Part shown: positions 1,978 through 62,224 of the stretch, in pieces | Layout: each line of letters opens with the position of its first letter | How positions within the stretch are numbered: position 1 is the stretch's first letter | Origin: Chloroflexota bacterium | GTDB taxonomy: Bacteria; Chloroflexota; Limnocylindria; Limnocylindrales; CSP1-4 | NCBI GenBank assembly: GCA_021813655.1 | Contig: JAKAJU010000189.1 | Coordinates: 2,229 to 66,228, forward strand | Length of the DNA: 64,000 nucleotides | Direction: 5' to 3' | Made by a program: the position numbers and the translations under genes | The notes under the pieces: generated by a model | What the model was told of the DNA's origin: nothing | Seen by the model: the letters and a program-made list of their open reading frames with translations, nothing else | The model's database searches: none

Positions 1978-2039
1978 CCGGCGACCACGCTGCGCTGGCC
2001 GCCGGGTCGCCACCGGGTCACCGCGGGGTCGCCGACGGT

Positions 2040-35025: not shown

Positions 35026-37005
35026 TCAGGCGGCTCGGACCGACCGCGTGAGCAGCCCGGCGAGACCGGTCGACAGCGTGACGAGCCCCGAGATCGCGAG
35101 GACCGTCGAGATCCCGATCCCTGCGGCGAGCAGGCCCGCGACGGCCATCGCGGCGCTCATCGACGCGGTGACCAACGCGAACCGGAAGCTCACGACACGC
35201 CCCATGAGCTCCTGCGGCGTCCGCTCCTGGAAGAGCGTCTGGCTCGGGATCACGTAGACCATGTTCGCGACGCCACAGCCCGCCATGAGGCCGATCGCGA
35301 TGGGCACGTTCCCAGTGAGGCCGAGGGCCGCCGTGCATGCGCCGTACAGCACGAATCCCAGGATCACCATCCTCCCCCGCGCGAAGCGCATCCCCACGAG
35401 GCCGACGAGGAACCCTCCCACGAGGTTGCCGACGCCCACCGCCGTCTCCAGGAGCGCGTACGTCGTGGAGGCGTCGAGCTGGCCCAGCTCGAGGACCTGG
35501 GCTGCATAGACCGGGGTCAGGGCGATCGTCGTGCCCACGCTCACCTGGGCGATCGCCCCCTGGAGCGTGTTGGCGAGCAGGACCGACTCGCTCCTGAGGA
35601 ACCGCCATCCCTCGCGGAGGTCCTCGATGACCCCCCGAACGCCAACGCTCGCTCGCCCGGCCGCACGCACCACGGGCGGGATCGCCATCGTCGCGATCAG
35701 GATCGCGGACGCAACGAACGTGAGCGCGTCGAGCCAGAAGGCGAGGGCGAGCGCCGATCCCAGGAACGCGACGAAGAGACCCGCGATCGGGTACCCCACC
35801 ACGTCTGCGAGCGTCTCGCCGATCCACGTCGCCGAGTTGGCGGTCACGAGCTCGTCGTCCCCGACGATCCGCGGGATCACCGCCGTCCGAGCCGGTCGGA
35901 AGAAGATCGTGATGCTCGTGACGAGGAACACGAGCGGGTAGACGAGGAGGACGTTCACCGTCGCCGCCGCGGGGACGAGGAGGACCGCCGCCGCCCGGAG
36001 GAGGTCGCTCACGACCATCACCTCCCGATGGTCCCAGCGATCCACGAACGCCCCGGCGACGGGTCCGAGGAGGAGACTCGGGAGGAAGGCGGCGACGAAG
36101 ACCGCGCTCACCGCGATGGGGGACCCCGTGAGCCCGAGGACCAGGAAGACGATCGCGATCTGGTTGACCCGATCGCCGAAGAAGCTCACAAGCTGGCCGA
36201 CCCACAGCGCCGAGAAGTCCCCGTTGAGCGCGAGCCGGACGTACGGGTGACGGAGGACGCGCCTCCCGATCGAGGGCGCCGCCCGTTCCGCCGAGACCGA
36301 GGGTCCGCCGCCAAGGCCTCCGAGGAGCCGCGCGCGTGGGAGTGCCGCGGCCTCGCTCATCTCCGCGATCCCCGCGGCGACCGCACCGAGGCGCAGCGTG
36401 GCGCGCCCGCCGGCCGCGGCGGGCGGGGCGGCCGGCGTCGGCGCCTCGTCGAGCCACGCCGGATGGCCCACTACGGCGGCGAAGAGGAACGTGCCCAGGC
36501 CGGCGGCGATGAATACGTCCCCGATGGAGGCGACGTTGCGGACCACCGGGAGCGGGATCGGGATGACGTCGCTCAACGGCCCCAGGTGGAGCAGGAAGGA
36601 CGTGTCGAGCGTCCCCGGCAGCAGGACGTGGAGCGCCGGGCTCACGTCGCCGACCGTGAAGCCGGCCGCGAGGAGGCTCGGCTCCCAGACCGGCATCCGG
36701 CCCGCGTTCCACAGGATGACGATCCCGTTGCTCAGGACGCCCACGAGCGCAAGGAGGAAGCCCGGGTAGCGCCGATTGGCCGCGAGCCCCACGACCAGGA
36801 AGCCGTACGCCACGGTCAGGAGCGCGGTCCGCGCCGGCTCCGGGACCGGCCACCCTGCTCCGACGCCGAACTCGACGATCGCGCGCATGACGAGCGCGCC
36901 GAAGATCATCCAGACGTACGCGATCCGGACCGACGCCAGGCGCCAGATCGAGCCGCCGGCCGCAAGCCCCGCGACCAGGCCCAGGACGATCGCCCCGGCG
37001 AGCAC
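35026..37005 (-). CDS. Fusion protein: N-terminal polytopic membrane domain of unknown function + C-terminal MFS transporter
   Basis: The first roughly 190 aa form 5-6 TM helices (possibly DUF5317-like). From ...LRHPYVRLALNGDFSALWVGQLVSFFGDRVNQ onward the protein is a 12-TM MFS fold. It is a single ORF with no stop between the two parts. Confidence 0.65.
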   Translation of the reverse strand: MLAGAIVLGLVAGLAAGGSIWRLASVRIAYVWMIFGALVMRAIVEFGVGAGWPVPEPARTALLTVAYGFLVVGLAANRRYPGFLLALVGVLSNGIVILWNAGRMPVWEPSLLAAGFTVGDVSPALHVLLPGTLDTSFLLHLGPLSDVIPIPLPVVRNVASIGDVFIAAGLGTFLFAAVVGHPAWLDEAPTPAAPPAAAGGRATLRLGAVAAGIAEMSEAAALPRARLLGGLGGGPSVSAERAAPSIGRRVLRHPYVRLALNGDFSALWVGQLVSFFGDRVNQIAIVFLVLGLTGSPIAVSAVFVAAFLPSLLLGPVAGAFVDRWDHREVMVVSDLLRAAAVLLVPAAATVNVLLVYPLVFLVTSITIFFRPARTAVIPRIVGDDELVTANSATWIGETLADVVGYPIAGLFVAFLGSALALAFWLDALTFVASAILIATMAIPPVVRAAGRASVGVRGVIEDLREGWRFLRSESVLLANTLQGAIAQVSVGTTIALTPVYAAQVLELGQLDASTTYALLETAVGVGNLVGGFLVGLVGMRFARGRMVILGFVLYGACTAALGLTGNVPIAIGLMAGCGVANMVYVIPSQTLFQERTPQELMGRVVSFRFALVTASMSAAMAVAGLLAAGIGISTVLAISGLVTLSTGLAGLLTRSVRAA

Positions 37006-37008
37006 TCT

Positions 37009-38430
37009 CTAGCTGTTCTTGGCGGGTGCCGGCGTGGTGTCGGGACCCCCACCGGAGGTGGCGGTCGCGAGTCGGTCGGCGACGTCGCGGATGAGCGGGA
37101 CGGGGTGGTTCTCGTTCGGGCGTCCCGGGTCCGGCACATCGCGAACCCAGTGCGTCTTCGCGAACGCCTCGACCATCTGCGGGTCGAACTGGATGCCGGC
37201 GAAGCGTCGCAGCTCGGCGAGAGCCTGCGTGTGCGTCAGCGGCGTCATCCGGTACGGGCGGGCGGCCGTCATCGCCTCGTACGCGTCCGCCACCGCGAGG
37301 ATCCGCGCGAGTTCCGGGATCTCCATCCCCACGAGGCGGTCCGGGTAGCCCGACCCGTTGAACCATTCGTGGTGGTGGCGGATGAGGGGCACGACCGGGG
37401 CCAGCTTCGTGACCGGGCCGATGATGTTCGCACCCATGACCGGGTGCGCGTTCATCAGCGCGCGCTCCTCCTTCGTGAGCGTCCCCGGCTTCAGGAGCAC
37501 CGAATCCGGCACGCCGATCTTCCCGACGTCGTGCAGCAGGCCGCCCCACTCGAGAGAGTCGAGATCGGCCGCGGAGACCTTCCGGACGCGCCCGATGTCG
37601 ACAGACATCGTCATCACCCGGCGGCTGTGGTTCGACGTGAACTTGTCGCGGGCGTCGACTGCCTCGGCCAGCACCTCGATCGTCTGCGTGAACATCTCGC
37701 GCATCTCGACGAAGCGGTGATACGCGACGCGGGTGGTGTAGAGCGGGACGGCGAAGAGAAGCGTGGCCCAGGAGAGCACCTGATACATCTGTGCCATGAG
37801 CCACGCGAGCGGGACAAGGAACAGCAGGTTCGTGTACAGCTCAGCGTCTGCGCGGATGATTGTCGACAGTCGGGCGCCCGTCCGGAGAGCGACCACATTG
37901 CTGGCGAGCACCAAGTTCAGCACAAAGAAGACGGATGCTCCGACAGCAGCCGTAGCGATCCCCAGAAGCGCCTGGAGCGGGTCGGCCGATGGCTGGCTCG
38001 GCTGCAAGCCAAAGGCCGATCCGGCACCCCAGATGACCAGTCCTCCGACGATCGCGGGCAGCACCACCCCGGCGTGGTTCGATAGCGTCCCGTACCACGG
38101 GATGTCGCCGCGGAGTTCCCGCATCTCCGTCGCGCCGATGAGCGCGACCCACCCAGCCGCGGTGGGTCCGCCAAGAATCATGGCAACAACCACGGGGGCC
38201 GTGGCTACGTTCACCCGCGTCCCACTGGCCAGCTGAACTGGCATCGCAGATAGCAGCAGAGTCACAAACGTCCAGAACGCGACGCCTGCGATGAGCCCAG
38301 CCTGAGCCGACAGATCGATGCCGCTGGGCGCGATCCATTCCTGAATAGGAATCGTGAGGCTCGTGGCTGCCAGCGCGACGGCGCTGACGCCCACGAGCCC
38401 CGAGATGTAGGCCTTGAGGGGTGTCGTCAC
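37009..38430 (-). CDS. 7TM-receptor HD-GYP domain cyclic-di-GMP phosphodiesterase
   Basis: The N-terminal 7TM region is followed by HDVGKIGVPDSVLLKPG...HHEWFNGSGYPDRL, which gives the HD and GYP signatures. Confidence 0.85.
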   Translation of the reverse strand: MTTPLKAYISGLVGVSAVALAATSLTIPIQEWIAPSGIDLSAQAGLIAGVAFWTFVTLLLSAMPVQLASGTRVNVATAPVVVAMILGGPTAAGWVALIGATEMRELRGDIPWYGTLSNHAGVVLPAIVGGLVIWGAGSAFGLQPSQPSADPLQALLGIATAAVGASVFFVLNLVLASNVVALRTGARLSTIIRADAELYTNLLFLVPLAWLMAQMYQVLSWATLLFAVPLYTTRVAYHRFVEMREMFTQTIEVLAEAVDARDKFTSNHSRRVMTMSVDIGRVRKVSAADLDSLEWGGLLHDVGKIGVPDSVLLKPGTLTKEERALMNAHPVMGANIIGPVTKLAPVVPLIRHHHEWFNGSGYPDRLVGMEIPELARILAVADAYEAMTAARPYRMTPLTHTQALAELRRFAGIQFDPQMVEAFAKTHWVRDVPDPGRPNENHPVPLIRDVADRLATATSGGGPDTTPAPAKNS

Positions 38431-38944
38431 CTGTGCCAGTACCGCTCCCTCGGTGCGCCGCTCCGGTAGAGACTACCTCCCGGTGGCGCCTGGGGGAACG
38501 GAACGCGGGCTAGAAACCCTTCAGAGAGGCCCCACCAGCCAGCGCAGCTGCAGCAACCGCGCCGACGGCCGTGATGAGGCGGAGGATCCTGAACTTCATC
38601 TAGCGATACCTCTGCCGCTCTCGACCTGCCTACCAGCCCTTGACGAAGGACTCGATCCGCACGCTCGTACCTCCTGCGGCCTCCTGTTCGCAAAACAGGA
38701 AACCGACCTGACTCGGGGTCGGTCGGTTGCACTAGTCGCTCTGCCCTTCCCTAAGTGCCCAGTTCAGGAGGGGCTTCGAAGCGTCCGAGCGTCAATTCGT
38801 GCCGCTAGTACTTTCGTACTGCCAGCGCACCGGACTATAGGCGGCCGCTCGCGGAAGGGTCAATAAGCACGCATGCCTATCGACTCTCCGCCGTCTGCCG
38901 TATTCTCGACCGACAGCCGCCAACCGTCGCACACCAGTTGCGGG

Positions 38945-41900
38945 CTACAGCGCGTCTATGGGAGGCACCTCAAGACCGAACTCGGCTCTCTGTACCTGCG
39001 CGTAGTGCGCGTACTGCTCGGCCGCCGCCGCGAAGGCGCCCATGCACCGGTAGAGCCGTATCGCAGTTCGCTCAATGCTCTCCGCCGTGGAGTCCACATC
39101 CAGCACACGGTGCGCCAGGTACAGTGCGTTGGGGTAGTCCCCAGCTTCGGTGAACCGCAGGATCGCTCGCTCCATCGCCTCGAGATACCGCGCGTGCAGG
39201 TAGTCTCGATGCGTTGTCGCCCAGTCCTCGTACTCGAAGTCCAGTGCGAACCGACCGCCGTAGCTCTCCGCGAGGATCGAGACGGAGTCGTCGGATTCCG
39301 CGGACGCCTTCGACCTGAGCAGGACGAGGCAGGATTGGGAATCCGCCTTTACCAATTCCGTGTCGAACCACACCATGTCCTGGTCGCTCATCACGTACCC
39401 AGGCGTGGTCTCGTCGTGGTAGTCAGGCTCGAGGACGCGTCGGAGGAAGTACACCGTTTGGTTCAGCGAATTGGACGCCAGCTCTGGTGTGAGGTCAGGC
39501 CAGATCGCGTCAAGCACCTGCTCGCGCGTTGCCGTCATCTCGGGGCGGGTACACAGGTAGCACACCAAGCTGAGCACCTTGCGCCTGATGCTGGAGCCCG
39601 CGAGGACGGTGTCCCCGACGGCTACGGAGACCGCGCCAAGGTCGTGTATCTCTACCCGCGGTGCCACTCGACGGGCAAGTCGCCGCACGCTCACGTCGAC
39701 TTCGCGGAGTCTCCGGACGCGTCTCCCTGCTTCACGGAGCGGCGCAACGTCACGACTCGAACCCACCGATTCGAGCACCCTGGCTGCTTCGACGACCGAC
39801 TCCGCGGACCCTGTCGCCAGAACGTCGCGCAAGGCAGACGCCCACCGCGCGGGACGCTCCCCAGCGGCCGTCGCCACGACCGCCTCGGATTCTGTGTTGA
39901 GTAGCGGAAGATAGGGCGCAACGACCTCAGCGAAGGCCGACAGAAGCGCTGCGTCACGTCGAGCAATGTCGAGGACGGCATGCGACATCACGCTCCGGTC
40001 CGCACTGGACGCCGCCAAGGCGAGTTGTGCCTTGGCGGCCCAGTAGTCGGCGCCCTGTGCCCTTGCCACCGACAGGGCCCTCCGACACAGTGAGGCGGCT
40101 TCGGGTTGTCCTCGTCGCACGGCCAAGACGGCAACGGAGGCGGCAAGGTGACTAACGGCGCCGACATCGAGAGCCCCGCTTGACGGCTCAGCCTGCTCAA
40201 GAAGCCTGGCAGCATCCTCGAGGGCGCCGAGGCGAACCGCGTTCTCCGCGCGAGCAAGGGGCAGCATCGCGTCACCGGGAACCCAACCCGACGGCAGATT
40301 CTCGCTTCCTAGCTGCAGCCACGAGTCGGCCTGCTCCGGGTCGATGTACGCACCGAGCACGTCCGCGCCCTCAGCGAGCACCTCGTCCATGATTCCCAGA
40401 CTGCCGAGATCGCGTGCGGCCTCCAGGTCGCTCATCGCTTCCTGCGGCCGGTTCAGGTGGGCGAGGGCCCACGCCCGAGCAAGGTGAGCGGAGCTCCGCT
40501 CGATTGACGCGGCCGAGTCGCCGAACGCCGCCAGCGCCTCGTTGGCACACTCGAGCGCTGCGTCTGCGCGGCCCTGAACGCGACAGACGAACGCGAGGTT
40601 GAGGAGCGTTACGCCCCGGTAGTGGCGGCCGGACGCCTCCGTCTGAAGAGTGAGGGCGGCCCGCAGCCGCTCCTCCGCGAGTGTCAGGCTGCCGCCCCGC
40701 GACACGTCAATAAGGGCACTCGTGCCGAGTGCGATCGGGACAAGGTACGGCTCGTCCTCCAGCTCGCTCACGGTCGCCGCCAGTGCCCGGGCCTTCTCGA
40801 AGTCGCCCGCGAAGAAGTGGATCGTCATCAGGTTCGCGAGCGCCAGGTGCCGGTCCGGGCCCGGGGCCTCGAGCTCCGCGACCGCGCGCTCCGCGCGCAG
40901 GATCGCGTCGTCCACGCGGCCGCTCCGGAGCTCGCGGCGCGAGAGGATGATGTCGAACCAGGGCGTCTCGTCCGCCGTCGGGAACCGGCTGATGTAGCTC
41001 TCGGCGTAGGAGTAGTCGCCGGCGGACATGATCGAGCGCGTGGCGGCGACGAGCACTCGGTGGAGGTCGTCGGCGTCGCCGGCCTCGGCGTAGTGGTGTG
41101 CTGCACGCCGCCAGTCGATCGGCTCGGCGGCCGCCGCGATCCGCAGGTGGACAGCCCGCACGCCGTCGGCGCCGATCTCCCGCGCCAGCCGCGCGGTGAG
41201 GAACCCGCGCACGAGCGGGTGATACTGGGCGCCGCTGCGCGCGGAGCGACCGCGGCCCATCGACAGGAGGCCGAGGCGCTGCGCCTGCGCGATGTCCTCG
41301 ACCGCGGTCGCCCGGTCGACGTCCGCGGCATCCATCGCGGGGCCGACCTCGACGTCGACGAGCAGTGACGTCCGCATGAGGAAGGACCGGAGGTCCGGGT
41401 CGAGGTCCCCCACGACCTCCTCGGCGAGGTAGTCGTAGAGGGGACCCTCCGTCGCGGAGAGGTCGCGGATGAAGCGGCGGACCTCGCGGTCCGAACGGTC
41501 ACGGATCGCGGCGCGCACGAGGTTGAGGGAGGCGACCCATCCTTCGGTGCGCTCCTCGAGCGCGGCGAGGGACTCACGATCGAGCGGGCGCCGGTACGTC
41601 TCGCGAAAGAGAGTCTCGGTCTCGGCGTGATCGAACCGGAGGTCGTCCGCCGTGAGTTCCGCGACCTCTCCGTGCGTGCGCAGACGCGCGAGCGCGACCG
41701 GCGGGCGCTGGCGGCCCGAGAGGACGACTGTCATCCGGTCCGGCGCGCGGGCGACGATCTCGCGGAGTGCGTGCTGGACCTCCGGTGCGTGGTCGAGTGC
41801 CTGGACGTCGTCGAAGATCAGCACCGTGGGCTCGTCCGTGAGTGCCGAAAGCTCCCGGACGAAGGTGTCGACGAGCACGCTCGCGGGCGTGGCGAGCGTG

Positions 41901-42202
41901 CCGATGTCACGAAGGAGTCCCGCAGTCGTCTCGCCGACCTCGGGCGCCACCCGGCGGCAGGCGGTGAGCAGGTATCGGACGAACGTGACGACGTCGCCGT
42001 CGTCCTCGTCGAGCTGGTGCCAGATGGTCCGGATCCGCGTCCGCCGGGCGAAGTCGGCCAGAAGCGTGGTCTTCCCGTAGCCGGCCTCGGCGACGACCGT
42101 GACCACGCGCCGGTGGATCTTCGCGTCGAGCCAGTCCAGCAGCCGTGATCGCGACAGGACGTCCGCTCGGAGCTGGGGCGGCTGGGTCTTGCTCAACCGC
42201 AT
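38945..42202 (-). CDS. STAND NTPase transcriptional regulator with a C-terminal SARP module (wHTH + BTAD)
   Basis: The MalT-like N-terminus (MRLSKTQPPQLRADVLSRSRLLDWL...VVTVVAEAGYGKTTLLADF) carries Walker A and B motifs, and is followed by TPR-like helical repeats. The C-terminus is an OmpR/PhoB-type winged helix (RRKVLSLVCYLCTRPEMTATREQVLDAIWPD...LNQTVYFLRRVLEPD) followed by BTAD (FEYEDWATTHRDYLHARYLEA...). The start is uncertain (M at 42202 or 42289, no good SD). Confidence 0.7.
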   Translation of the reverse strand: MRLSKTQPPQLRADVLSRSRLLDWLDAKIHRRVVTVVAEAGYGKTTLLADFARRTRIRTIWHQLDEDDGDVVTFVRYLLTACRRVAPEVGETTAGLLRDIGTLATPASVLVDTFVRELSALTDEPTVLIFDDVQALDHAPEVQHALREIVARAPDRMTVVLSGRQRPPVALARLRTHGEVAELTADDLRFDHAETETLFRETYRRPLDRESLAALEERTEGWVASLNLVRAAIRDRSDREVRRFIRDLSATEGPLYDYLAEEVVGDLDPDLRSFLMRTSLLVDVEVGPAMDAADVDRATAVEDIAQAQRLGLLSMGRGRSARSGAQYHPLVRGFLTARLAREIGADGVRAVHLRIAAAAEPIDWRRAAHHYAEAGDADDLHRVLVAATRSIMSAGDYSYAESYISRFPTADETPWFDIILSRRELRSGRVDDAILRAERAVAELEAPGPDRHLALANLMTIHFFAGDFEKARALAATVSELEDEPYLVPIALGTSALIDVSRGGSLTLAEERLRAALTLQTEASGRHYRGVTLLNLAFVCRVQGRADAALECANEALAAFGDSAASIERSSAHLARAWALAHLNRPQEAMSDLEAARDLGSLGIMDEVLAEGADVLGAYIDPEQADSWLQLGSENLPSGWVPGDAMLPLARAENAVRLGALEDAARLLEQAEPSSGALDVGAVSHLAASVAVLAVRRGQPEAASLCRRALSVARAQGADYWAAKAQLALAASSADRSVMSHAVLDIARRDAALLSAFAEVVAPYLPLLNTESEAVVATAAGERPARWASALRDVLATGSAESVVEAARVLESVGSSRDVAPLREAGRRVRRLREVDVSVRRLARRVAPRVEIHDLGAVSVAVGDTVLAGSSIRRKVLSLVCYLCTRPEMTATREQVLDAIWPDLTPELASNSLNQTVYFLRRVLEPDYHDETTPGYVMSDQDMVWFDTELVKADSQSCLVLLRSKASAESDDSVSILAESYGGRFALDFEYEDWATTHRDYLHARYLEAMERAILRFTEAGDYPNALYLAHRVLDVDSTAESIERTAIRLYRCMGAFAAAAEQYAHYAQVQRAEFGLEVPPIDAL

Positions 42203-42499
42203 CGGAGGATCGGTCACCGCCCAGTACGCGGCCGTCCGACCCTGGTGCGGCGGCGCGCCCCCGGGTCCGACCGGGACGCGTGCCGCCATCCCCCCAGCGC
42301 CGGAATCGGCCTGTGCGGACGATACAGGCGTTTCGAACGGCGCGTGACTCTCCCGCGTCGTGCACGGACGTTGAGTTGTCGCTGAGATTCGGTAGGAGGG
42401 CGGCATGGTCGGGCGATGGTGCCCGACCCGAATCACCCGCGGATCACCACGGACACGCCGAGGCCACTCCTCGGGGGGCTACTCAGCCCCCCGCGCGGG

Positions 42500-42703
42500 T
42501 CAGCTCTCGTATTCGAAGGTGATCTTCACCTCGACGAGGTACTCGACGATCTCTCCGTCCTCGACGCGCGCGGTGGACTTCACGACCTCCACCTGGCGGA
42601 TGTTCCTGACAGTCCGGGACGCCCGGGTGACAGCCTGACGCGCCGCGTCGCTCCACGACGTGGGGCTCGTTCCGACCATCTCGCGGATGATGAGAACTCC
42701 CAT
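42500..42703 (-). CDS. Dodecin family flavin-binding protein
   Basis: 67 aa. MGVLIIREMVGTSPTSWSDAARQAVTRASRTVRNIRQVEVV...EYLVEVKITFEY matches dodecin. An AGGAGG SD lies 7 nt upstream. Confidence 0.75.
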   Translation of the reverse strand: MGVLIIREMVGTSPTSWSDAARQAVTRASRTVRNIRQVEVVKSTARVEDGEIVEYLVEVKITFEYES

Positions 42704-42748
42704 CGAAGCCTCCTGTTCGGGACGCCGCTCTGGGGCGCCCCGGGCAGT

Positions 42749-44098
42749 CTAGGCGGCCCCCGCCGCCGCCCTGTCCCCGGCGTACCCCACGAAGCGCGTC
42801 TGTCGCTTCTTGAACCAGAGCTGGAGCTCTCCCGTCGGTCCGTTGCGGTGTTTGGCGAGACGGACGTTCACCATCTCGCCGTCGGCGTCCGCGTCGTCGG
42901 GCTTCTCCTTGTCGCGCCAGAGGAAGATGACGAGGTCGGCGTCCTGCTCGATCGCGCCCGATTCGCGCAGGTCGGAGAGCCGCGGCTCCTTGGACTCGCG
43001 CATCTCGGCCTGGCGCGAGAGCTGCGAGAGAGCGACGACCGGGATGCTCAGCTCGCGCGCGAGCGCCTTGAGCCCGCGCGAGATCTCGGAGACCTCCTGG
43101 ACCCGGTTCGCGTCGCGGCTCTGCACGGTCGCCTGCATGAGCTGGAGATAGTCGACGACGATCAGGTCGAGGCCCGATTCCGCCTGCAGCCGTCGGGCCT
43201 TGGTGCGCAGCTCCATCGTGGAGATGTTGGGCGTGTCATCGATGTAGATGGGCGCCTCGGACAGGGCATTCATCGCGGGTGCGATGCGGGCGAAGTCCAT
43301 CTCCTCGAGGAATCCGCTCCGAAGCCGCTGGGAATCGATGTTCGCCACGCTCGAGAGGAGGCGCAGGACGAGCTGCTCCTTGCTCATCTCGAGGCTGAAG
43401 ATGCCGACCGACTTCCCGTCGCGGACGGCCGCGTGCTCGGCGACGTTGAGAGCGAAGCTTGTCTTGCCCACGCTCGGGCGCGCCGCGAGGACGACGAGGT
43501 CGCTCTTCTGGAGGCCGGTCGTGAGGGCGTCGAGGTCCGCGAACCCGGTGCGGACGCCGCTCACCTCGCCGCGGTGCGCGTGGAGATAGTCGAGGCGGTC
43601 GTACGCGTCATGGAGGAGGATGCGCAGCCGCGCGAAGCCGTCGTCCACCCGGCGCTGGCTGACGGCGAACAGCTCCTGTTCGGCTCGGTCGATCGCCGCC
43701 TGCACGTCCGCGCCGTCCTCGTACCCGATCGCAGCGACCTTCCCGGCCGCGGCGATGAGGTTGCGGAGGACTGCCTTGCGCTCGACGATCCGTGCGTAGT
43801 GCATCGCGTGGACGGCGGTGGGCGTCCGGTTCGAGAGGGTCGACAGGTATGCGCGACCGCCGACCGCCTCGAGCTGGTCGGCGCGCTCGAGTGTCTCGGC
43901 GACGGTGACGATGTCGACCGGCTCGCGCCGCTCGAAGAGCTCGAACATCGCGCCGTAGACGGTCCCGTTCGCCTGCCGGTAGAAGTCCTCGGGGCGCAGG
44001 AACTCGGCGATCTCGACGATCGCGTCGCGGTCGATGAGGATGGCGCCGAGGACCGATTCCTCGGCTTCGACGCTCTGGGGCGGCAGGCGGTCGATCAC
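42749..44098 (-). CDS. dnaB: Replicative DNA helicase DnaB
   Basis: N-terminal PPQSVEAEESVLGAILID, Walker A motif ARPSVGKTSFALN, and the RecA-like motifs ...IVVDYLQLM... No intein is present. Confidence 0.9.
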   Translation of the reverse strand: MIDRLPPQSVEAEESVLGAILIDRDAIVEIAEFLRPEDFYRQANGTVYGAMFELFERREPVDIVTVAETLERADQLEAVGGRAYLSTLSNRTPTAVHAMHYARIVERKAVLRNLIAAAGKVAAIGYEDGADVQAAIDRAEQELFAVSQRRVDDGFARLRILLHDAYDRLDYLHAHRGEVSGVRTGFADLDALTTGLQKSDLVVLAARPSVGKTSFALNVAEHAAVRDGKSVGIFSLEMSKEQLVLRLLSSVANIDSQRLRSGFLEEMDFARIAPAMNALSEAPIYIDDTPNISTMELRTKARRLQAESGLDLIVVDYLQLMQATVQSRDANRVQEVSEISRGLKALARELSIPVVALSQLSRQAEMRESKEPRLSDLRESGAIEQDADLVIFLWRDKEKPDDADADGEMVNVRLAKHRNGPTGELQLWFKKRQTRFVGYAGDRAAAGAA

Positions 44099-44264: not shown

Positions 44265-44945
44265 TCAGTCGAGCCGGCGGATGACGCCGATGAGCTTCCC
44301 CTGGATCCGCACCTCGTCGTAGAACTGCGGCGGGTAGTCCGGGTTGGCCGGCTGGAGGCGGATGCGCCCCTGCTCGCGGAAGAACCGCTTGAGCGTGACT
44401 GCGTTCTCCTCCACCTGGGCGACGACGATGTCCCCGTTCCTGGCCGTCTGCTGCGGCCGGATGACGACGTAGTCCCCGTCGGTGATGTGCGCCTCGATCA
44501 TCGAGTCGCCCCGGACGCGGAGGAGATAGGCGTCGCCGTCCGGAGACAGCATCCCCGGCACCGGCACCGTCTCGGAGACATCCTGGTAGGCCTCGATCGG
44601 TCCACCGGCGGCGATCTCGCCGACGACCGGCAGCACGTGGGAGGCGCCCGCTGTGGAGGACTGGGCGATCTCCAGCTGCAGGCCGAGCATGATCGCGGCT
44701 GCCGGGGTGAGCCGCAGGGCGCGTGGCTGCGCGGCCCGATGGGCAGCATCCGGGCCGTCGAGATAGACACGCTCGAGGTACCCGTCGCGCTCCAGGGCCT
44801 GGAGATGGTGGTGGACGGCCGACGTGGACGCGAGGTCCACGGCGCGCGCGATGTCCCGGATGGACGGAGGGAAGCCGGTCTCGCGGGTGGTGGCCGCGAT
44901 GTACTCGAGGATCCGCCGCTTACGCTCAGCGTCGTGCTTGGTCAC
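44265..44945 (-). CDS. lexA: LexA repressor
   Basis: N-terminal wHTH (RETGFPPSIRDIARAV), a cleavage site in ...VPVVGEIAAGGP..., and the S24 peptidase Ser/Lys (VRGDSM...KRF). Confidence 0.9.
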   Translation of the reverse strand: MTKHDAERKRRILEYIAATTRETGFPPSIRDIARAVDLASTSAVHHHLQALERDGYLERVYLDGPDAAHRAAQPRALRLTPAAAIMLGLQLEIAQSSTAGASHVLPVVGEIAAGGPIEAYQDVSETVPVPGMLSPDGDAYLLRVRGDSMIEAHITDGDYVVIRPQQTARNGDIVVAQVEENAVTLKRFFREQGRIRLQPANPDYPPQFYDEVRIQGKLIGVIRRLD

Positions 44946-59728: not shown

Positions 59729-62224
59729 ATGAGCGACGGGGACACGCACGCGCTGCCCTCGACGGAGATCCGGCGAATGCGCCACGCGCTCTCGCTCAGC
59801 CAGGAGCAGTTGGCCCGACGGGTCGGCGTCTCCTTCGCGACCGTCAATCGCTGGGAGCGCGGCCGCTCACGGCCTCGCGGAGCGGCGCTGCAGCGGCTCG
59901 AAGTGATCCGATCGCTTGCGCCCATCCCGTCGGCGCCCGCCGCGGCGCGAGGCCCGGTGGGCTTCCCGGCCCCGATGACGAGTTTCATCGGCCGGGCCGC
60001 AGAACTGGAGCGGTTGCGCCAACTCCTTGGGACCGTTCGGCTCGTCACGCTGGTGGGCGCCGGCGGGAGCGGGAAGACGCGGCTGGCCGTCGAGGTGTTG
60101 ACGAGCAGCACGCCAGAGCCTGCTGGCGAGGTGCGATTCGCCAGCCTCGAAGCACTCGTGGCAGACGACGATCTCGCCGGCTCCCTCGTCGCGCAGGTTG
60201 GCGACGCTGCCGGCGGCGCGGATGGCGGTGACGCGCTCGCGCAGGCGTTTGCCGGGACGCGGCTGCTGGTGCTCGACAACTGCGAACACGTCCTCGAGGC
60301 GTCGCGCAGGGTCGTCACGCGTCTGCTGGCGGACCGTCCCGACCTTCGCATCCTCGCCACGAGCCGGGAGCCGCTGGGACTGGCGGCCGAATCGGTCGTC
60401 CGCGTGAGCGGGCTGGGAGCCGACGATCCGCAGCATTCCGACGCGGTCGCGCTGTTCATCGACCGCGTCCAGAAACGCATGAGCAGCTACGGGCCGGGTG
60501 CCGGTGAGGTCGACGCGATCGCGGTGCTCTGCCGGCGCCTCGACGGCCTGCCACTCGCGATCGAGCTCGCCGCGGCGTTCTTGCCGGCCCTGTCGCCGGC
60601 GGAGATCTCCGAACGGCTCGACCATCGGTTCCAGCTTCTCGTGTCGCACGACCCTGGTTCAGCGCAGCGACACAGGGCGCTCCAGGCCACGGTCGCGTGG
60701 AGCTACGACCTACTCGAGCCTGCCGAACAGCGGCTCTTCGAACGCCTGTCGATCTTCCCCGCAAGCTTCTCCTTCAATGCGGCCGAGGCGGTCGGCGCAC
60801 GCAACGACGACGAATCCGACGCGTCGGATGTCTTCCTGGGCCTCGCGTCGCTGGTCGACAAGTCGATGGTGGAGGTCCGGACGGACGGCTCAGGTTGGCG
60901 ATATGAGCTGCTCGAGAGCCTCCGCGAGTTCGGCCGCGAGCGGCTGGCGGAACGTGGCCGGCTCGATGAAGCGTCGGCGCTGCTCTTCGCGTGGGCGCAC
61001 GACTTTGCCGGCCGTGCGGCCACGGGGATGGTAGGGCCTGAGCAGCGGACGTGGCTGGTGGCCGCCGCCCTCGAAGCCGACACAGCCGAGTCGGCGCTCG
61101 CGTGGGCCGTGGCTCGCGGCGACGCAGCGCGGGCGGTTGGGCTTGCCGGCCGTTTCTGGCGCTACTGGTATTCGCGCTCCGACATTCGGGGCGGGCTGCG
61201 GCGTCTGGACGCCGCACTCGCGCTGCCAGGCGAGGTCCCGGGAGCGGACCGGGCACGGGCCCTGCTGGGAGCCGGCGCGCTCGCCCGGCAGCGCGGCGAC
61301 TATGCCGCCTCCGTCCGGTATCTCCGCGAGCACCTCACGCTGGCGCGGCAGTTGGGCGACGACAACGCCATCGCTGACGGCTACAACAGCCTCGCGGGCG
61401 CACTCCACGGCGCGGGCGACACCTGCCGTGCGCGCGCGATCCTCCAGGAAGGCGTCGCGTGGTGGGAGAGCCGGCACGATCGCCACGGGCTCGCGTCCGC
61501 GCTCAGCAACCTCGGGGTGCTTGCGTCCGACGACGGCGACTACCAGGCGGCGCGGCGATTCGGAGAACAGGCGCTCGCGATGCGGCTTGCCCTCGGCCAC
61601 GAGGAGAGCATCGCGATCTCGTACGAGAACCTGGCCACGGCGGCGCTTCGCGGCGGCGACCGCGGCGAGGCCCGACATCACTTCCGGGAGGCCCTGGCGC
61701 GGTATTCGGCCCTCAACGAACCCGACGGGATCGCGACCGCGCTCGAAGGCCTCGCGGCGCTGGCCGCCGCCGGCGTCGCCGTGACGCTGTACGCCGCCGC
61801 GGCCCGACTCCGGCGCGACATCGAGGTGCCATCGACCCCCGCCGACGAGGCGTTCCACCGCGACCGCCTCGTGGATCTGCGCCACGAGGTCAAGACGGCG
61901 GAGTTCGACGCGCGTTGGGCGGCTGGCGAAGGACTCGGTGTGCCGGCCGCGACGTCGCTGGCTCTGGCGTCATCACTGGGGGAGGACCGTGGCGCCGCCG
62001 CGCAGCCGTCGGCTGGCCGCCTGACGCGCCGTGAGCGGCAGGTCCTCGAGCTCATGACGCACGGGCACACATCGAAGGAGATGGGGGCCCAGCTCCGTCT
62101 CAGCCCGAGGACAGTGGAGCGCCACCTTGCCAGCATCTACGGCAAGGTGGGTGCCCGCGGTCGAGCCGACGCGATCGCGTTCGGCCTGCGCACCGGAACC
62201 GGAACGCCCGATGCTGAGCCATAG
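59729..62224 (+). CDS. XRE-HTH / NB-ARC (STAND) ATPase / TPR / C-terminal LuxR-HTH transcriptional regulator
   Basis: N-terminal XRE HTH ([32 protein letters not shown]). Walker A motif [15 protein letters not shown] and Walker B motif [12 protein letters not shown]-like repeats. C-terminal LuxR HTH ([44 protein letters not shown]). Confidence 0.8.

Follow-up and report, generated by a model that had tools for sequence, protein, structure and literature searches.

The gene described here encodes a regulator in which a MalT-clade STAND NTPase and a TPR-like sensor are followed by a complete C-terminal SARP module, consisting of an OmpR-type wHTH and a bacterial transcriptional activation domain (BTAD). 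The usual DNA-binding end of a MalT-type, ATP-driven switch protein has thus been exchanged for the SARP activator module that is familiar from antibiotic regulators. We consider it reasonably probable that this MalT-clade STAND transcription factor, its LuxR HTH replaced by a SARP, acts on its own leaderless promoter. The window referred to throughout is the whole 64-kb stretch of DNA that was analysed.

Reading frame and domain architecture

The ORF survey of the window found the minus-strand ORF 38945-42436 unbroken. The first-pass annotation had taken this ORF in full, and its continuity stands; its start most likely does not, since an ATG that is open and in frame with the gene is kept in 73 of 77 related loci, which favours ATG at 42406 over GTG at 42436. 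The ATG is retained even though the N-terminal extension behind it varies from 43 to 96 codons across these loci, always by a multiple of three. The features of the gene and of its first three domains are as follows.

38945..42406, minus strand: regulator gene, 1153 aa plus stop (ATG 42404-42406, TAG 38945-38947; coordinates verified)
42203..42406, minus strand: N-terminal extension, residues 1-68 (low-complexity, with conserved short motifs)
40979..42178, minus strand: MalT-type nucleotide-binding oligomerisation domain (NOD) plus winged-helix domain, residues ~77-476 (8bob matches)
42065-42082, minus strand: Walker A, GYGKTT
41807-41824, minus strand: Walker B, VLIFDD
41210-41224, minus strand: YHPL histidine motif
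39665..41113, minus strand: all-helical TPR-like (SUPR) sensor, residues ~432-914 (TPR_12; AfsR TPR profile; 1hz4)

The extension carries the motif PVGPG and, in most relatives, SVDT...SVSFAPP, and is either modelled by AF2 with low confidence or lies outside the model. The full-length model is otherwise confident and continuous (pLDDT 86.2), and a Foldseek search with it returned as top matches MalT 8bob (8bob_C first), the archaeal STAND-TPR protein 6mfv and MalT domain III. In the NTPase, GYGKTT and VLIFDD fit the STAND patterns GxxxxGK[ST] for Walker A and hhhhDD for Walker B; across 40 homologues, Walker A G-Y-G-K-T-T, the DD of Walker B and the YHPL histidine are all invariant, a conservation that shows the NTPase to be, on sequence grounds, catalytically competent. 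Pfam AAA_16 and AAA_22 both match above their cut-offs at residues 98-242 of ORF 38945-42436, and the NCBIfam MalT model aligns its positions 5-558 with ORF residues 82-635 (E 3.6e-58), at a score of 197 bits that lies under the equivalog cut-off of 537. The MalT structure 8bob is matched by the single sequence at E 2e-30 (query 9-408) and by the profile at 3.4e-58, and in the 8bob alignment the YHPL of the regulator falls on that of MalT. Since Pfam gives no NB-ARC match in the protein, and since AfsR chains align with the regulator profile through their TPR and SARP segments only and not through the NOD, the NTPase is, by these profile comparisons, of the MalT clade and not NB-ARC. The sensor region is all-helical in the AF2 model (helix map); it contains a Pfam TPR_12 match at residues 582-638 of ORF 38945-42436, MalT domain III (1hz4) superposes on it with a TMt of 0.68, and the TPR region of AfsR matches the regulator profile at E 8.7e-8.

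The C-terminal SARP module

The last ~235 residues, in the regulator and in all of the top 150 representatives, form an OmpR-type wHTH with a BTAD directly after it, which is the arrangement that defines a SARP.

39344..39655, minus strand: OmpR-type wHTH, residues ~918-1021 (Trans_reg_C; topology; AfsR/EmbR fold matches)
39437-39472, minus strand: recognition helix NSLNQTVYFLRR
38948..39343, minus strand: BTAD, residues ~1022-1153 (Pfam; AfsR profile; fold)

Pfam BTAD scores 30.9 bits at ORF residues 1055-1156, above its cut-off of 22.1, and Trans_reg_C scores 25.9 bits at ORF residues 952-1008, just below its cut-off of 26.2. Thus, of the Pfam domains that the first-pass annotation had named, AAA_16 and BTAD are recognised, Trans_reg_C falls marginally short and NB-ARC is absent. 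The models give the wHTH the expected topology of beta-sheet, three helices and wing, and its recognition helix has the invariant residues N, S, Q, T, Y, F, L, R and R. Residues 71-273 of the AfsR SARP align continuously with the regulator profile over both sub-domains (E 6.7e-7). The last 248 aa, modelled separately (pLDDT 91.6), have significant fold matches only in the AfsR SARP (8k60, 8hvr) and in EmbR (2ff4, 2fez), at E 1e-6 to 2e-5 and TM 0.60-0.65, with generic TPR proteins coming next at E > 1e-2. There is no Pfam GerE match, and hence no sign of a GerE/LuxR HTH, in the regulator; relatives that carry GerE score clearly. The domain order proposed from the first pass, with a MalT-like NTPase, a helical sensor and a wHTH plus BTAD in the place of MalT's LuxR HTH, is therefore borne out by Pfam, NCBIfam, PDB profiles and fold matches alike. 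At the positions of the base-contacting AfsR residues T88 and R92, the alignment places Q and F, so that the DNA contacts of AfsR are not simply transferable to the regulator.

Distribution and genomic context

At least 587 species-level genomes contain full-length relatives, and nearly all of these genomes are Chloroflexota (Ca. Limnocylindria); more than 120 full-length homologues from independent assemblies, with 42-100% identity, are among the matches listed. The host genomes are MAGs of this group, with soil Chloroflexota among them by the hundred. In 300 cluster representatives at E<=1e-30, the SARP module is always at the C-terminal end. As the closest N-terminal relatives, in Cupriavidus, Streptomyces and Burkholderia, terminate in GerE/LuxR, and as the same NOD-TPR-BTAD order recurs in a Deinococcus plasmid protein and in a Chloroflexota ZRK35 plasmid protein, comparison of these relatives shows an effector swap in which the LuxR-type HTH of MalT/LAL regulators gave way to a complete SARP module. 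The regulator is no orphan: it is a member of a large conserved family that databases already label generically, the JGI pipeline calling relatives 'MalT / DNA-binding SARP family' and RefSeq naming the Deinococcus relative 'BTAD domain-containing putative transcriptional regulator'. An earlier impression that it belongs to no standard family holds only for the published SARP classes (small, medium, large and SARP-LAL), which have the SARP module N-terminal in all cases and do not include the C-terminal order.

The neighbours of the regulator are lexA, dnaB, dodecin, HD-GYP and MFS genes, not a secondary-metabolite cluster, and this synteny is stable in ~70 of 80 loci. The usual SARP, by comparison, comes from an actinomycete and is linked to such a cluster. 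Two readings of the protein itself can be weighed against this background. If the ORF were an assembly or annotation fusion of a MalT-like ATPase with a small SARP, or if its C-terminus were merely more TPR, the sub-threshold Trans_reg_C score and the fall in GC content to 0.62-0.63 across 38500-39500 would be accommodated. The chance of this is practically negligible, given that the frame is continuous across the family in independent assemblies, that the AF2 model shows high confidence and no break and that the C-terminal fold is that of complete AfsR and EmbR SARP domains, wHTH included. Both doubts had been raised in the first-pass annotation; the BTAD match and the AfsR/EmbR fold refute the one, and the full-length relatives in at least 587 genomes the other. 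We also regard as highly improbable an anti-phage, Avs-like STAND sensor in place of a housekeeping transcription factor: the architecture of STAND NTPase and TPR would suit such a role, and an Avs4 match occurs, weakly, far down the Foldseek list, but PADLOC yields just a weak P-loop match to mad8 (E 2.7e-5), the locus is held stably between dnaB/dodecin and the HD-GYP operon and is no variable defence island, and the effector is a transcription-activation module, neither nuclease nor protease.

Comparison with known systems

The N-terminal two-thirds of the regulator are shared with MalT (P-loop NOD, winged-helix with the YHPL histidine, helical TPR-like/SUPR sensor), and in both proteins the DNA-binding effector is C-terminal. 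The two differ in that effector, a GerE/LuxR HTH of roughly 60 aa in MalT against a wHTH plus BTAD of ~235 aa here, and in the extra disordered N-terminal extension of 43-96 aa. AfsR of S. coelicolor, one of the large SARPs, likewise combines a complete SARP module (8k60, 8hvr; TM 0.60-0.63) with a STAND ATPase and TPR repeats, and the candidate site described below follows the rules of its afs box, with repeats of 11 bp, a weak -10 at a distance of 8 bp and no -35. In AfsR, however, the SARP is N-terminal and an NB-ARC ATPase stands between SARP and TPR, whereas the regulator has a MalT-clade ATPase and its SARP at the C-terminus; the recognition helices differ at T88/R92 (Q/F in the regulator), and the host here is a member of the Chloroflexota in which the context is no biosynthetic cluster. 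The description of the regulator as the reverse of the AfsR order is right about the position of the SARP, but the NTPase is not of the AfsR type, and the better description is of a MalT/LAL chassis whose effector has been exchanged.

The SARP-LAL regulators PimR, FilR and SanG are also hybrids of a SARP module and a LAL/MalT-like ATPase (PMC10972967), with the SARP first and the LAL half second, whereas here the LAL/MalT half is first and the SARP last. EmbR of M. tuberculosis has the same wHTH+BTAD fold (2ff4 and 2fez, TM 0.62-0.65), in an N-terminal SARP joined to a C-terminal FHA domain without an ATPase. The order of the regulator is matched by WP_124875136.1 (1013 aa, Deinococcus psychrotolerans plasmid) and QRN84570.1 (1069 aa, Chloroflexota ZRK35 plasmid), in which an AAA_22/MalT-like NOD and TPR precede a C-terminal (Trans_reg_C +) BTAD. 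These two differ in having only 26-32% identity over partial alignments and other genomic contexts, and no repeats comparable to those described next were found upstream of either of these distant homologues.

A candidate SARP box at the predicted promoter of the regulator

In published SARP promoters, direct repeats are spaced by 11 or 22 bp, 8 bp separate the 3' repeat from the -10, and within each 11-bp repeat the SARP contacts the first 8 bp; at afsS the -10 reads CACTGT and the -35 is poor (PMC10936776). An element of the same geometry lies directly upstream of the regulator ATG in 78 of 81 loci.

42441..42448, minus strand: direct repeat 1, candidate SARP box, GGTGATCC (GCTAATCG in most relatives; repeat search)
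42430..42437, minus strand: direct repeat 2, candidate SARP box, GGTGATTC (GGTGAGCG in most relatives; repeat search)
42416..42421, minus strand: -10-like hexamer CACCAT, 8 bp past repeat 2, with the ATG 9 nt further on

The repeats have a period of 11 bp, with 8 positions conserved and 3 variable in each, and independent repeat finding also reported the 11-nt-spaced pair. Repeat 2 is separated from the -10-like hexamer CAYCAT by exactly 8 bp (78/78 loci), the hexamer is followed by the ATG after 6-7 nt (69/77), and a Shine-Dalgarno-like motif precedes the ATG in 3 of 77 loci, as against 72 of 75 for dodecin. From this match to the published geometry we predict that the regulator activates its own promoter and that its mRNA is leaderless or nearly so. 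The pattern was not found in the rest of the 64-kb window, nor elsewhere in the related loci (1.1 Mb). As it was built from these same sequences, its occurrence before the gene follows in part from the way it was made, and its absence elsewhere is the only independent information.

The element may nevertheless be something else: a different factor may bind there, or it may be a 5'-UTR element, an RNA element or the end of the upstream operon, with the regulator acting on unlinked promoters only. We hold this to be rather unlikely, though it deserves to be taken seriously. The majority-clade repeats GCTAATCG and GGTGAGCG are only ~5/8 identical to one another, and the most conserved block, CGCAGCTAATCG, reaches past repeat 1 and is longer than a SARP half-site, so that the element could belong to another factor. 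Around the -10-like hexamer lies a covarying palindrome, though a weak one (mean stem 4.08 vs 3.53 +/- 0.12 in permutations); should it form an RNA hairpin, some transcripts would have to begin further upstream. Furthermore, a near-consensus TTGACA-N17-TATCGT within the N-terminal extension, present in 53 of 73 loci, could be the main promoter of the regulator. Against these points stand the invariance of the 11-bp period and of the distances to the hexamer and to an ATG without Shine-Dalgarno, just as the published SARP rule predicts (PMC10936776), the absence of any known Rfam RNA family at the element, and the fact that the element accompanies the regulator and not dodecin, staying with it where dodecin is absent, elsewhere or inverted.

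Dodecin and the downstream riboswitch operon

Two neighbours could be supposed to be targets in place of the regulator's own promoter.

42500..42703, minus strand: dodecin gene, upstream neighbour of the regulator on the same strand (Pfam Dodecin E 1e-23)
38712..38795, minus strand: c-di-GMP-II riboswitch aptamer (Rfam RF01786, 61.3 bits, gathering 53.5, E 3e-11)

The first-pass annotation took dodecin for the only gene downstream and for a candidate target; dodecin is upstream, and what lies downstream is the riboswitch, a small ORF and an HD-GYP-type gene. Dodecin is within 6 kb of the regulator in 75 of 80 loci, in most of them adjacent and on the same strand, which is what would speak for its regulation. 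That it is the regulated gene we judge very unlikely. It probably forms part of the dnaB transcript, as it starts 45 nt past the dnaB stop with its own Shine-Dalgarno (a GC-rich hairpin follows the gene), and the repeat search, which located the 11-nt-spaced pair before the regulator, found no direct repeats at the start of dodecin (42704-42760). The two genes are also separable: in ~10 of the 75 loci dodecin is elsewhere or inverted, the inverted copies adjoining dnaB ~1.9 kb away, and the regulator retains its own element. Its upstream position, the lack of repeats and these loci rule against dodecin as a target.

The riboswitch, directly downstream of the regulator, belongs to the neighbouring operon. 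A consensus promoter precedes it and a terminator-like hairpin follows; the small ORF and the HD-GYP gene come next, and the riboswitch controls both. A covariance model recovers it at the same position in 9 of 9 related loci tested, and nhmmer in 71 loci. The operon promoter begins 1-3 nt past the regulator stop codon in most genomes. Were this riboswitch / small ORF / HD-GYP / DUF5317-MFS operon the main target, the regulator would belong to a module for c-di-GMP control. Throughout the class the two are neighbours (HD_5 in 69 of 80 loci, with a gap of 427-522 nt in most), and a near-invariant block, GATAGGTA-N8-GTATTGACC, covers the operon -35 and the positions immediately before it and holds one half-site-like GGTAAG. 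We find this reading improbable all the same: the promoter elements TTGACC and TATAGT are near-consensus, which is atypical for SARP-dependent promoters, the operon promoter has no 11-bp-phased direct repeat, nothing 8 bp from the -10 and nothing of the regulator-promoter pattern, and synteny alone may reflect slow rearrangement near dnaB.

Proposed mechanism and implications

We posit, by analogy with MalT and AfsR, that the closed, ADP-bound form of the regulator would be inactive, and that a ligand at the TPR-like domain together with ATP binding would lead to opening and oligomerisation, oligomerisation that depends on inducer and ATP being a mark of the MalT/LAL family. In the oligomer, a pair of SARP modules would come to lie next to each other on 11-bp-phased repeats, which would replace the -35 element, and RNA polymerase would be recruited as in the AfsR complex. 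The predicted target is the regulator's own promoter, with two 8-bp repeats, 8 bp, CAYCAT and an ATG 6-9 nt further on without Shine-Dalgarno, and self-activation would amount to positive autoregulation.

It is also conceivable, if doubtful and a shade more so than the operon as main target, that the regulator, the riboswitch promoter and the riboswitch/small peptide/HD-GYP/DUF5317-MFS operon make up a single, conserved signalling module of the Ca. Limnocylindria. The STAND sensor would then read a second messenger or metabolite, such as c-di-GMP or a dodecin-linked flavin, and ATP-driven oligomerisation of the MalT-type scaffold would bring the C-terminal SARP modules to the 11-bp-phased repeats of the leaderless promoter. 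If this were true, STAND oligomerisation would be coupled to sigma-adaptation-type activation, a coupling that is not described for MalT or AfsR.

Gene start and neighbours

The regulator, a MalT-clade STAND NTPase ending in a SARP module (winged helix-turn-helix, wHTH, plus BTAD), is encoded by an uninterrupted ORF on the minus strand (38945-42436) of a window with 71% G+C. The ATG at 42406 is M11 of the long ORF. In 73 of 77 loci it shares the reading frame of the MalT-like domain with no stop in between, so that the gene most likely spans 38945-42406, giving a protein of 1153 aa; the stretch from ATG to domain runs from 43 to 96 codons and is invariably a multiple of three. A co-directional series of genes was picked out by codon-position GC:

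44265-44945, co-directional with the regulator, lexA
42749-44098, co-directional with the regulator, dnaB
42500-42703, minus strand, co-directional with and upstream of the regulator, dodecin
37009-38430, co-directional with the regulator and 514 bp past it, HD_5/HD-GYP-type gene
35026-37005, co-directional with the regulator, DUF5317-MFS fusion gene

The first-pass annotation had placed dodecin downstream of the large ORF, as a candidate target; the gene order on the minus strand puts it upstream. Only 45 nt separate the dnaB stop from the dodecin start (42704-42748, minus), where there is a strong AGGAGG, and a GC-rich hairpin, GGGGGGCT-GAGT-AGCCCCCC, follows dodecin without a U tract (42465-42500, minus). 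The short gap, the AGGAGG and the trailing hairpin therefore make dodecin look like the last gene of the lexA/dnaB-side transcript rather than a separately regulated one.

The neighbourhood is widely kept. Among 80 related loci dodecin is found in 75, dnaB in 70, the HD_5 gene in 69, lexA in 66 and the DUF5317-MFS gene in 58, the missing neighbours falling mostly at contig ends, and the gap from regulator to HD_5 gene is 427-522 nt in most of them. Class-wide identity is only 40-45% for the regulator, as against 55-85% for its neighbours; its sequence diverges much faster than the flanking genes. Its GC3 is 0.83 (neighbours higher, at 0.86-0.94), and G+C falls from the window mean of 0.71 to 0.62-0.63 at 38500-39500, across the SARP-coding end and the riboswitch leader.

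Domain content and family spread

Pfam assigns AAA_16/AAA_22 to residues 98-242, TPR_12 to residues 582-638, Trans_reg_C to residues 952-1008 (25.9 bits, just under the cut-off of 26.2) and BTAD to residues 1055-1156 (30.9 bits, cut-off 22.1). Positions 5-558 of the NCBIfam MalT model align with residues 82-635 (E 3.6e-58), and because this score lies under the equivalog cut-off we regard the regulator as MalT-like, not as MalT. The MalT structure 8bob is matched with E 2e-30, YHPL motif included, and a 40-sequence profile improves the match to MalT to E 3.4e-58; the same profile matches AfsR at two separate places, the TPR region and the SARP domain. Domain and profile searches found no NB-ARC or GerE signal in the regulator. 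Across the 40 homologues Walker A, Walker B and the histidine of YHPL are invariant, leaving the NTPase intact and conserved. The NOD, the winged-helix domain next to it and the sensor are all of the MalT type. The C-terminal SARP module is complete, with an invariant recognition helix, NSLNQTVYFLRR.

With 40 homologues as input, AlphaFold gave a full-length model (mean pLDDT 86.2) in which the NOD is followed by a long helical solenoid, a sheet of three strands, three helices, a wing formed by a beta-hairpin and six more helices. Among PDB entries the model best matches MalT (8bob), 6mfv (an archaeal STAND-TPR protein) and MalT domain III. A separate model of the last 248 residues (pLDDT 91.6) returned only six significant PDB matches, all of them the AfsR SARP domain (8k60, 8hvr) or EmbR (2ff4, 2fez), over the whole length, with E 1e-6 to 2e-5 and TM 0.60-0.65; generic TPR proteins came next in the list at E > 1e-2. 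Residues 71-273 of the AfsR SARP align with the C-terminal profile in one unbroken stretch (E 6.7e-7). The C-terminal wHTH and BTAD first proposed from the sequence alone are thus borne out by Pfam, by the AfsR/EmbR fold matches and by the continuous AfsR alignment.

A protein search gave 1404 relatives (E<=1e-5), and nearly all of the best 120 have full length, at about 1080-1170 aa and 42-100% identity, and an identical Pfam set. JGI labels these proteins 'MalT / DNA-binding SARP family transcriptional activator' or 'LuxR family maltose regulon positive regulatory protein'. A one-genome-per-species scan found at least 587 loci, of which the best 80 are all in Chloroflexota MAGs, many labelled Ca. 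Limnocylindrales or Limnocylindria. Given these numbers, and the full length of nearly all of the best 120 relatives, the concern that the ORF might be a fusion artefact of two genes can be set aside. Searched against 1.84 billion representatives, the C-terminal module profile retrieved 300 proteins at E<=1e-30 (the regulator's own subfamily), 10,329 at <=1e-10 and 39,707 at <=1e-3; in all 150 of the top 150 matches the module stands at the C-terminal end of the protein. Outside the orthologous group the same order is shared by a Deinococcus psychrotolerans plasmid protein (RefSeq 'BTAD domain-containing putative transcriptional regulator') and by a Chloroflexota ZRK35 plasmid protein labelled 'tetratricopeptide repeat protein'.

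Another STAND-type regulator in the window (59729-62224, plus strand, 831 aa) has an unusual double output, with an N-terminal XRE-type HTH_3 followed by AAA_16, TPR and a C-terminal GerE/LuxR HTH.

A candidate SARP box at the regulator start

Directly 5' of the regulator ATG, 78 of 81 loci have in common an element with the consensus CGCAGCTAATCG-nnn-GGTGAGcg-(8 nt)-CAYCAT-(6-7 nt)-ATG. In the window's own clade it consists of two nearly perfect repeats and a hexamer:

42448-42441, minus strand, repeat 1, GGTGATCC
42437-42430, minus strand, repeat 2, GGTGATTC
42421-42416, minus strand, hexamer CACCAT, 8 nt past repeat 2, with the ATG 9 nt further on

Repeat 2 and the hexamer stand 8 bp apart in 78 of 78 loci, and the hexamer and the ATG 6-7 nt apart in 69 of 77. 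An independent repeat search of the window DNA reports the 11-nt-spaced pair at the regulator start and nothing at the dodecin start or the riboswitch promoter; 42704-42760, the stretch near the dodecin promoter where a search for direct repeats had been proposed, contains none. The pattern occurs once in the 64-kb window, and every occurrence in 1.1 Mb of related loci lies upstream of the regulator, also where dodecin is found elsewhere.

SARP sites are direct repeats 11 or 22 bp apart, of which only the first 8 bp per 11-bp repeat are contacted, with the 3' repeat 8 bp from the -10, and their promoters combine a weak -10 (CACTGT in afsS) with a poor -35 (PMC10936776). Judged by its sequence, the element would fit all of these published rules. 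Only 3 of 77 loci have a Shine-Dalgarno-like motif ahead of the regulator ATG, whereas dodecin has one in 72 of 75; this, together with the hexamer-to-ATG distance, fits a leaderless transcript. We predict that a leaderless, SARP-dependent promoter lies at the regulator start. Repeats 1 and 2 of the majority clade agree at only about 5 of 8 positions, and conservation runs 4 nt past repeat 1. The leaderless-promoter model also does not explain a palindrome, TCGGGC ... GCCCGA, that brackets the CACCAT hexamer (42407-42429, minus) and whose arms vary and partly covary across loci; the effect is modest, the mean stem being 4.08 and that of permutations made without regard to phylogeny 3.53 +/- 0.12. 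Another covarying hairpin, at the GGTGAG of the element, was dropped as inconsistent across loci on inspection.

Within the coding sequence of the N-terminal extension, 53 of 73 loci contain a near-consensus TTGACA-N17-TATCGT, of which the window clade retains only TGTATCGT (42319-42326, minus). The sequence coincides with the peptide motifs SVDT and SVSFAPP (related loci L004-L080). Its codons (GTT; GTA, ATA or CTA) are rare ones at a genomic GC of 71%, which points to selection at the nucleotide level. An in-frame GTG/ATG/TTG is conserved 5 codons ahead of the MalT-like domain, and it could be that the internal sequence is a second, constitutive promoter for a shorter product.

Elsewhere in the window, tandem repeat analysis (TRF) found a period-11 array at 1998-2038 (3.7 copies, core GGYGACCC), where 65 nt separate a DUF192 gene from a comF-like phosphoribosyltransferase gene (1252-1974):

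2026-2033, minus strand, array repeat
2015-2022, minus strand, array repeat
2004-2011, minus strand, array repeat

Its core and the GGTGATCC repeats of the regulator agree at 6-7 of 8 positions. We rejected it as a second target, upstream of the comF-like gene: two of the three copies have C at the invariant-T position, a -10-like hexamer stands 11 nt away instead of 8, and in a metagenome scan the closest relatives available (53% identity) do not keep the array. The upstream regions of the Deinococcus and ZRK35 homologues showed no convincing repeats of 11 bp. The Deinococcus homologue has a TAGCAT hexamer 6 nt ahead of its ATG, a leaderless-type arrangement (3395-3437 of L081, the D. psychrotolerans plasmid locus), and a weak GT[TC]AG pair with 10-nt spacing ends 8 bp ahead of the hexamer; we take this as too weak to serve as support.

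The riboswitch operon

The sole Rfam hit in the window is a c-di-GMP-II riboswitch, RF01786, which scores 61.3 bits against a gathering score of 53.5. The covariance model finds it at this position in 9 of 9 related loci, and nhmmer finds it in 71 loci. Its promoter is almost invariant, GATAGGTA-N8-GTATTGACC-N17/18-TATAGT.

38863-38858, minus strand, TTGACC of the riboswitch promoter
38839-38834, minus strand, TATAGT of the riboswitch promoter
38712-38795, minus strand, c-di-GMP-II riboswitch
38728-38691, minus strand, terminator-like hairpin 3' of the riboswitch, its 5' arm overlapping the aptamer 3' end
38510-38599, minus strand, conserved 29-aa hydrophobic ORF, MKFRILRLITAVGAVAAAALAGGASLKGF, between riboswitch and HD-GYP-type gene

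The 29-aa ORF has no Pfam match, and its C-terminal motif ALAGGASL[RK]GF is kept in essentially all of 31 loci inspected. Just past the terminator there is a second tiny ORF, with a KGW end in many loci (window about 38629-38661). The riboswitch ahead of a small ORF, an HD-GYP-type phosphodiesterase and the DUF5317-MFS gene suggests a c-di-GMP feedback loop.

The GATAGGTA-N8-GTATTGACC block (38858-38881, minus) lies upstream of and over the -35, about 1-60 nt past the regulator stop in L001-L080 and starting 1-3 nt past it in most genomes; from its sequence it could be an UP-like element or the site of another factor. The class-wide adjacency leaves room for a functional link between regulator and operon, which may exist. 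That the regulator acts on this promoter through a SARP site is nevertheless an unlikely, low-probability alternative, because both consensus elements are present and phased repeats are lacking: the block contains no phased direct repeat, the promoter no 11-bp-phased repeat, and nothing lies 8 bp from its -10.

Discussion

Much is known about SARP activators and about MalT/LAL switches, and cryo-EM structures exist for both. The regulator would resemble MalT/LAL proteins in the working of its switch but lacks their defining LuxR-HTH, and it resembles AfsR in the type of its output. In all published SARP classes the DNA-binding module comes first, and they are discussed almost only for actinomycete antibiotic clusters; the regulator shows neither the N-terminal module nor the actinomycete and gene-cluster features. 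On these grounds we suggest that it should be filed in neither family.

The first-pass annotation had read the architecture as the reverse of AfsR. The C-terminal SARP module stands; an AfsR turned round does not, for there is no NB-ARC signal and the chassis is of the MalT/LAL type. The proteins closest to its N-terminal part, from Cupriavidus, Streptomyces and Burkholderia, are MalT/LAL proteins of the ordinary kind with a GerE end. The simplest reading is an effector swap on a MalT/LAL chassis. IniR (M. tuberculosis Rv0339c) was ruled out as a characterised member, its C-terminus being LuxR/SdiA-like. In literature searches whose scope did not extend to the 2004 STAND classification of Leipe et al., which may depict such architectures, no description or test of a MalT-type ATPase with a SARP at its C-terminus came to light. 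The architecture is already visible in automatic annotations and so is not categorically new.

By analogy with MalT and AfsR, we posit that ligand and ATP would release autoinhibition and allow oligomerisation, that two SARP modules would then settle side by side on the phased repeats in place of a -35, and that they would contact sigma region 4 and the polymerase core. The regulator's own leaderless promoter is predicted to be one target, resulting in positive feedback. The prediction is concrete and cheap: a repeat box of 19 bp is followed by a spacer of 8 bp, a weak -10 and an ATG that is leaderless.

For annotation, the family argues for a dedicated model, replacing 'BTAD domain-containing putative transcriptional regulator', 'tetratricopeptide repeat protein' and 'LuxR family maltose regulon positive regulatory protein', the names now given to its members. 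It is also a natural test case for the question whether an AfsR-type side-by-side SARP dimer can be driven by STAND oligomerisation when the module is tethered from the other end. The family shows that a MalT-type chassis can also carry the SARP output as its C-terminal effector, outside the Actinomycetota, and the regulator is a conserved core-genome gene of an abundant, uncultured class of soil and freshwater bacteria.
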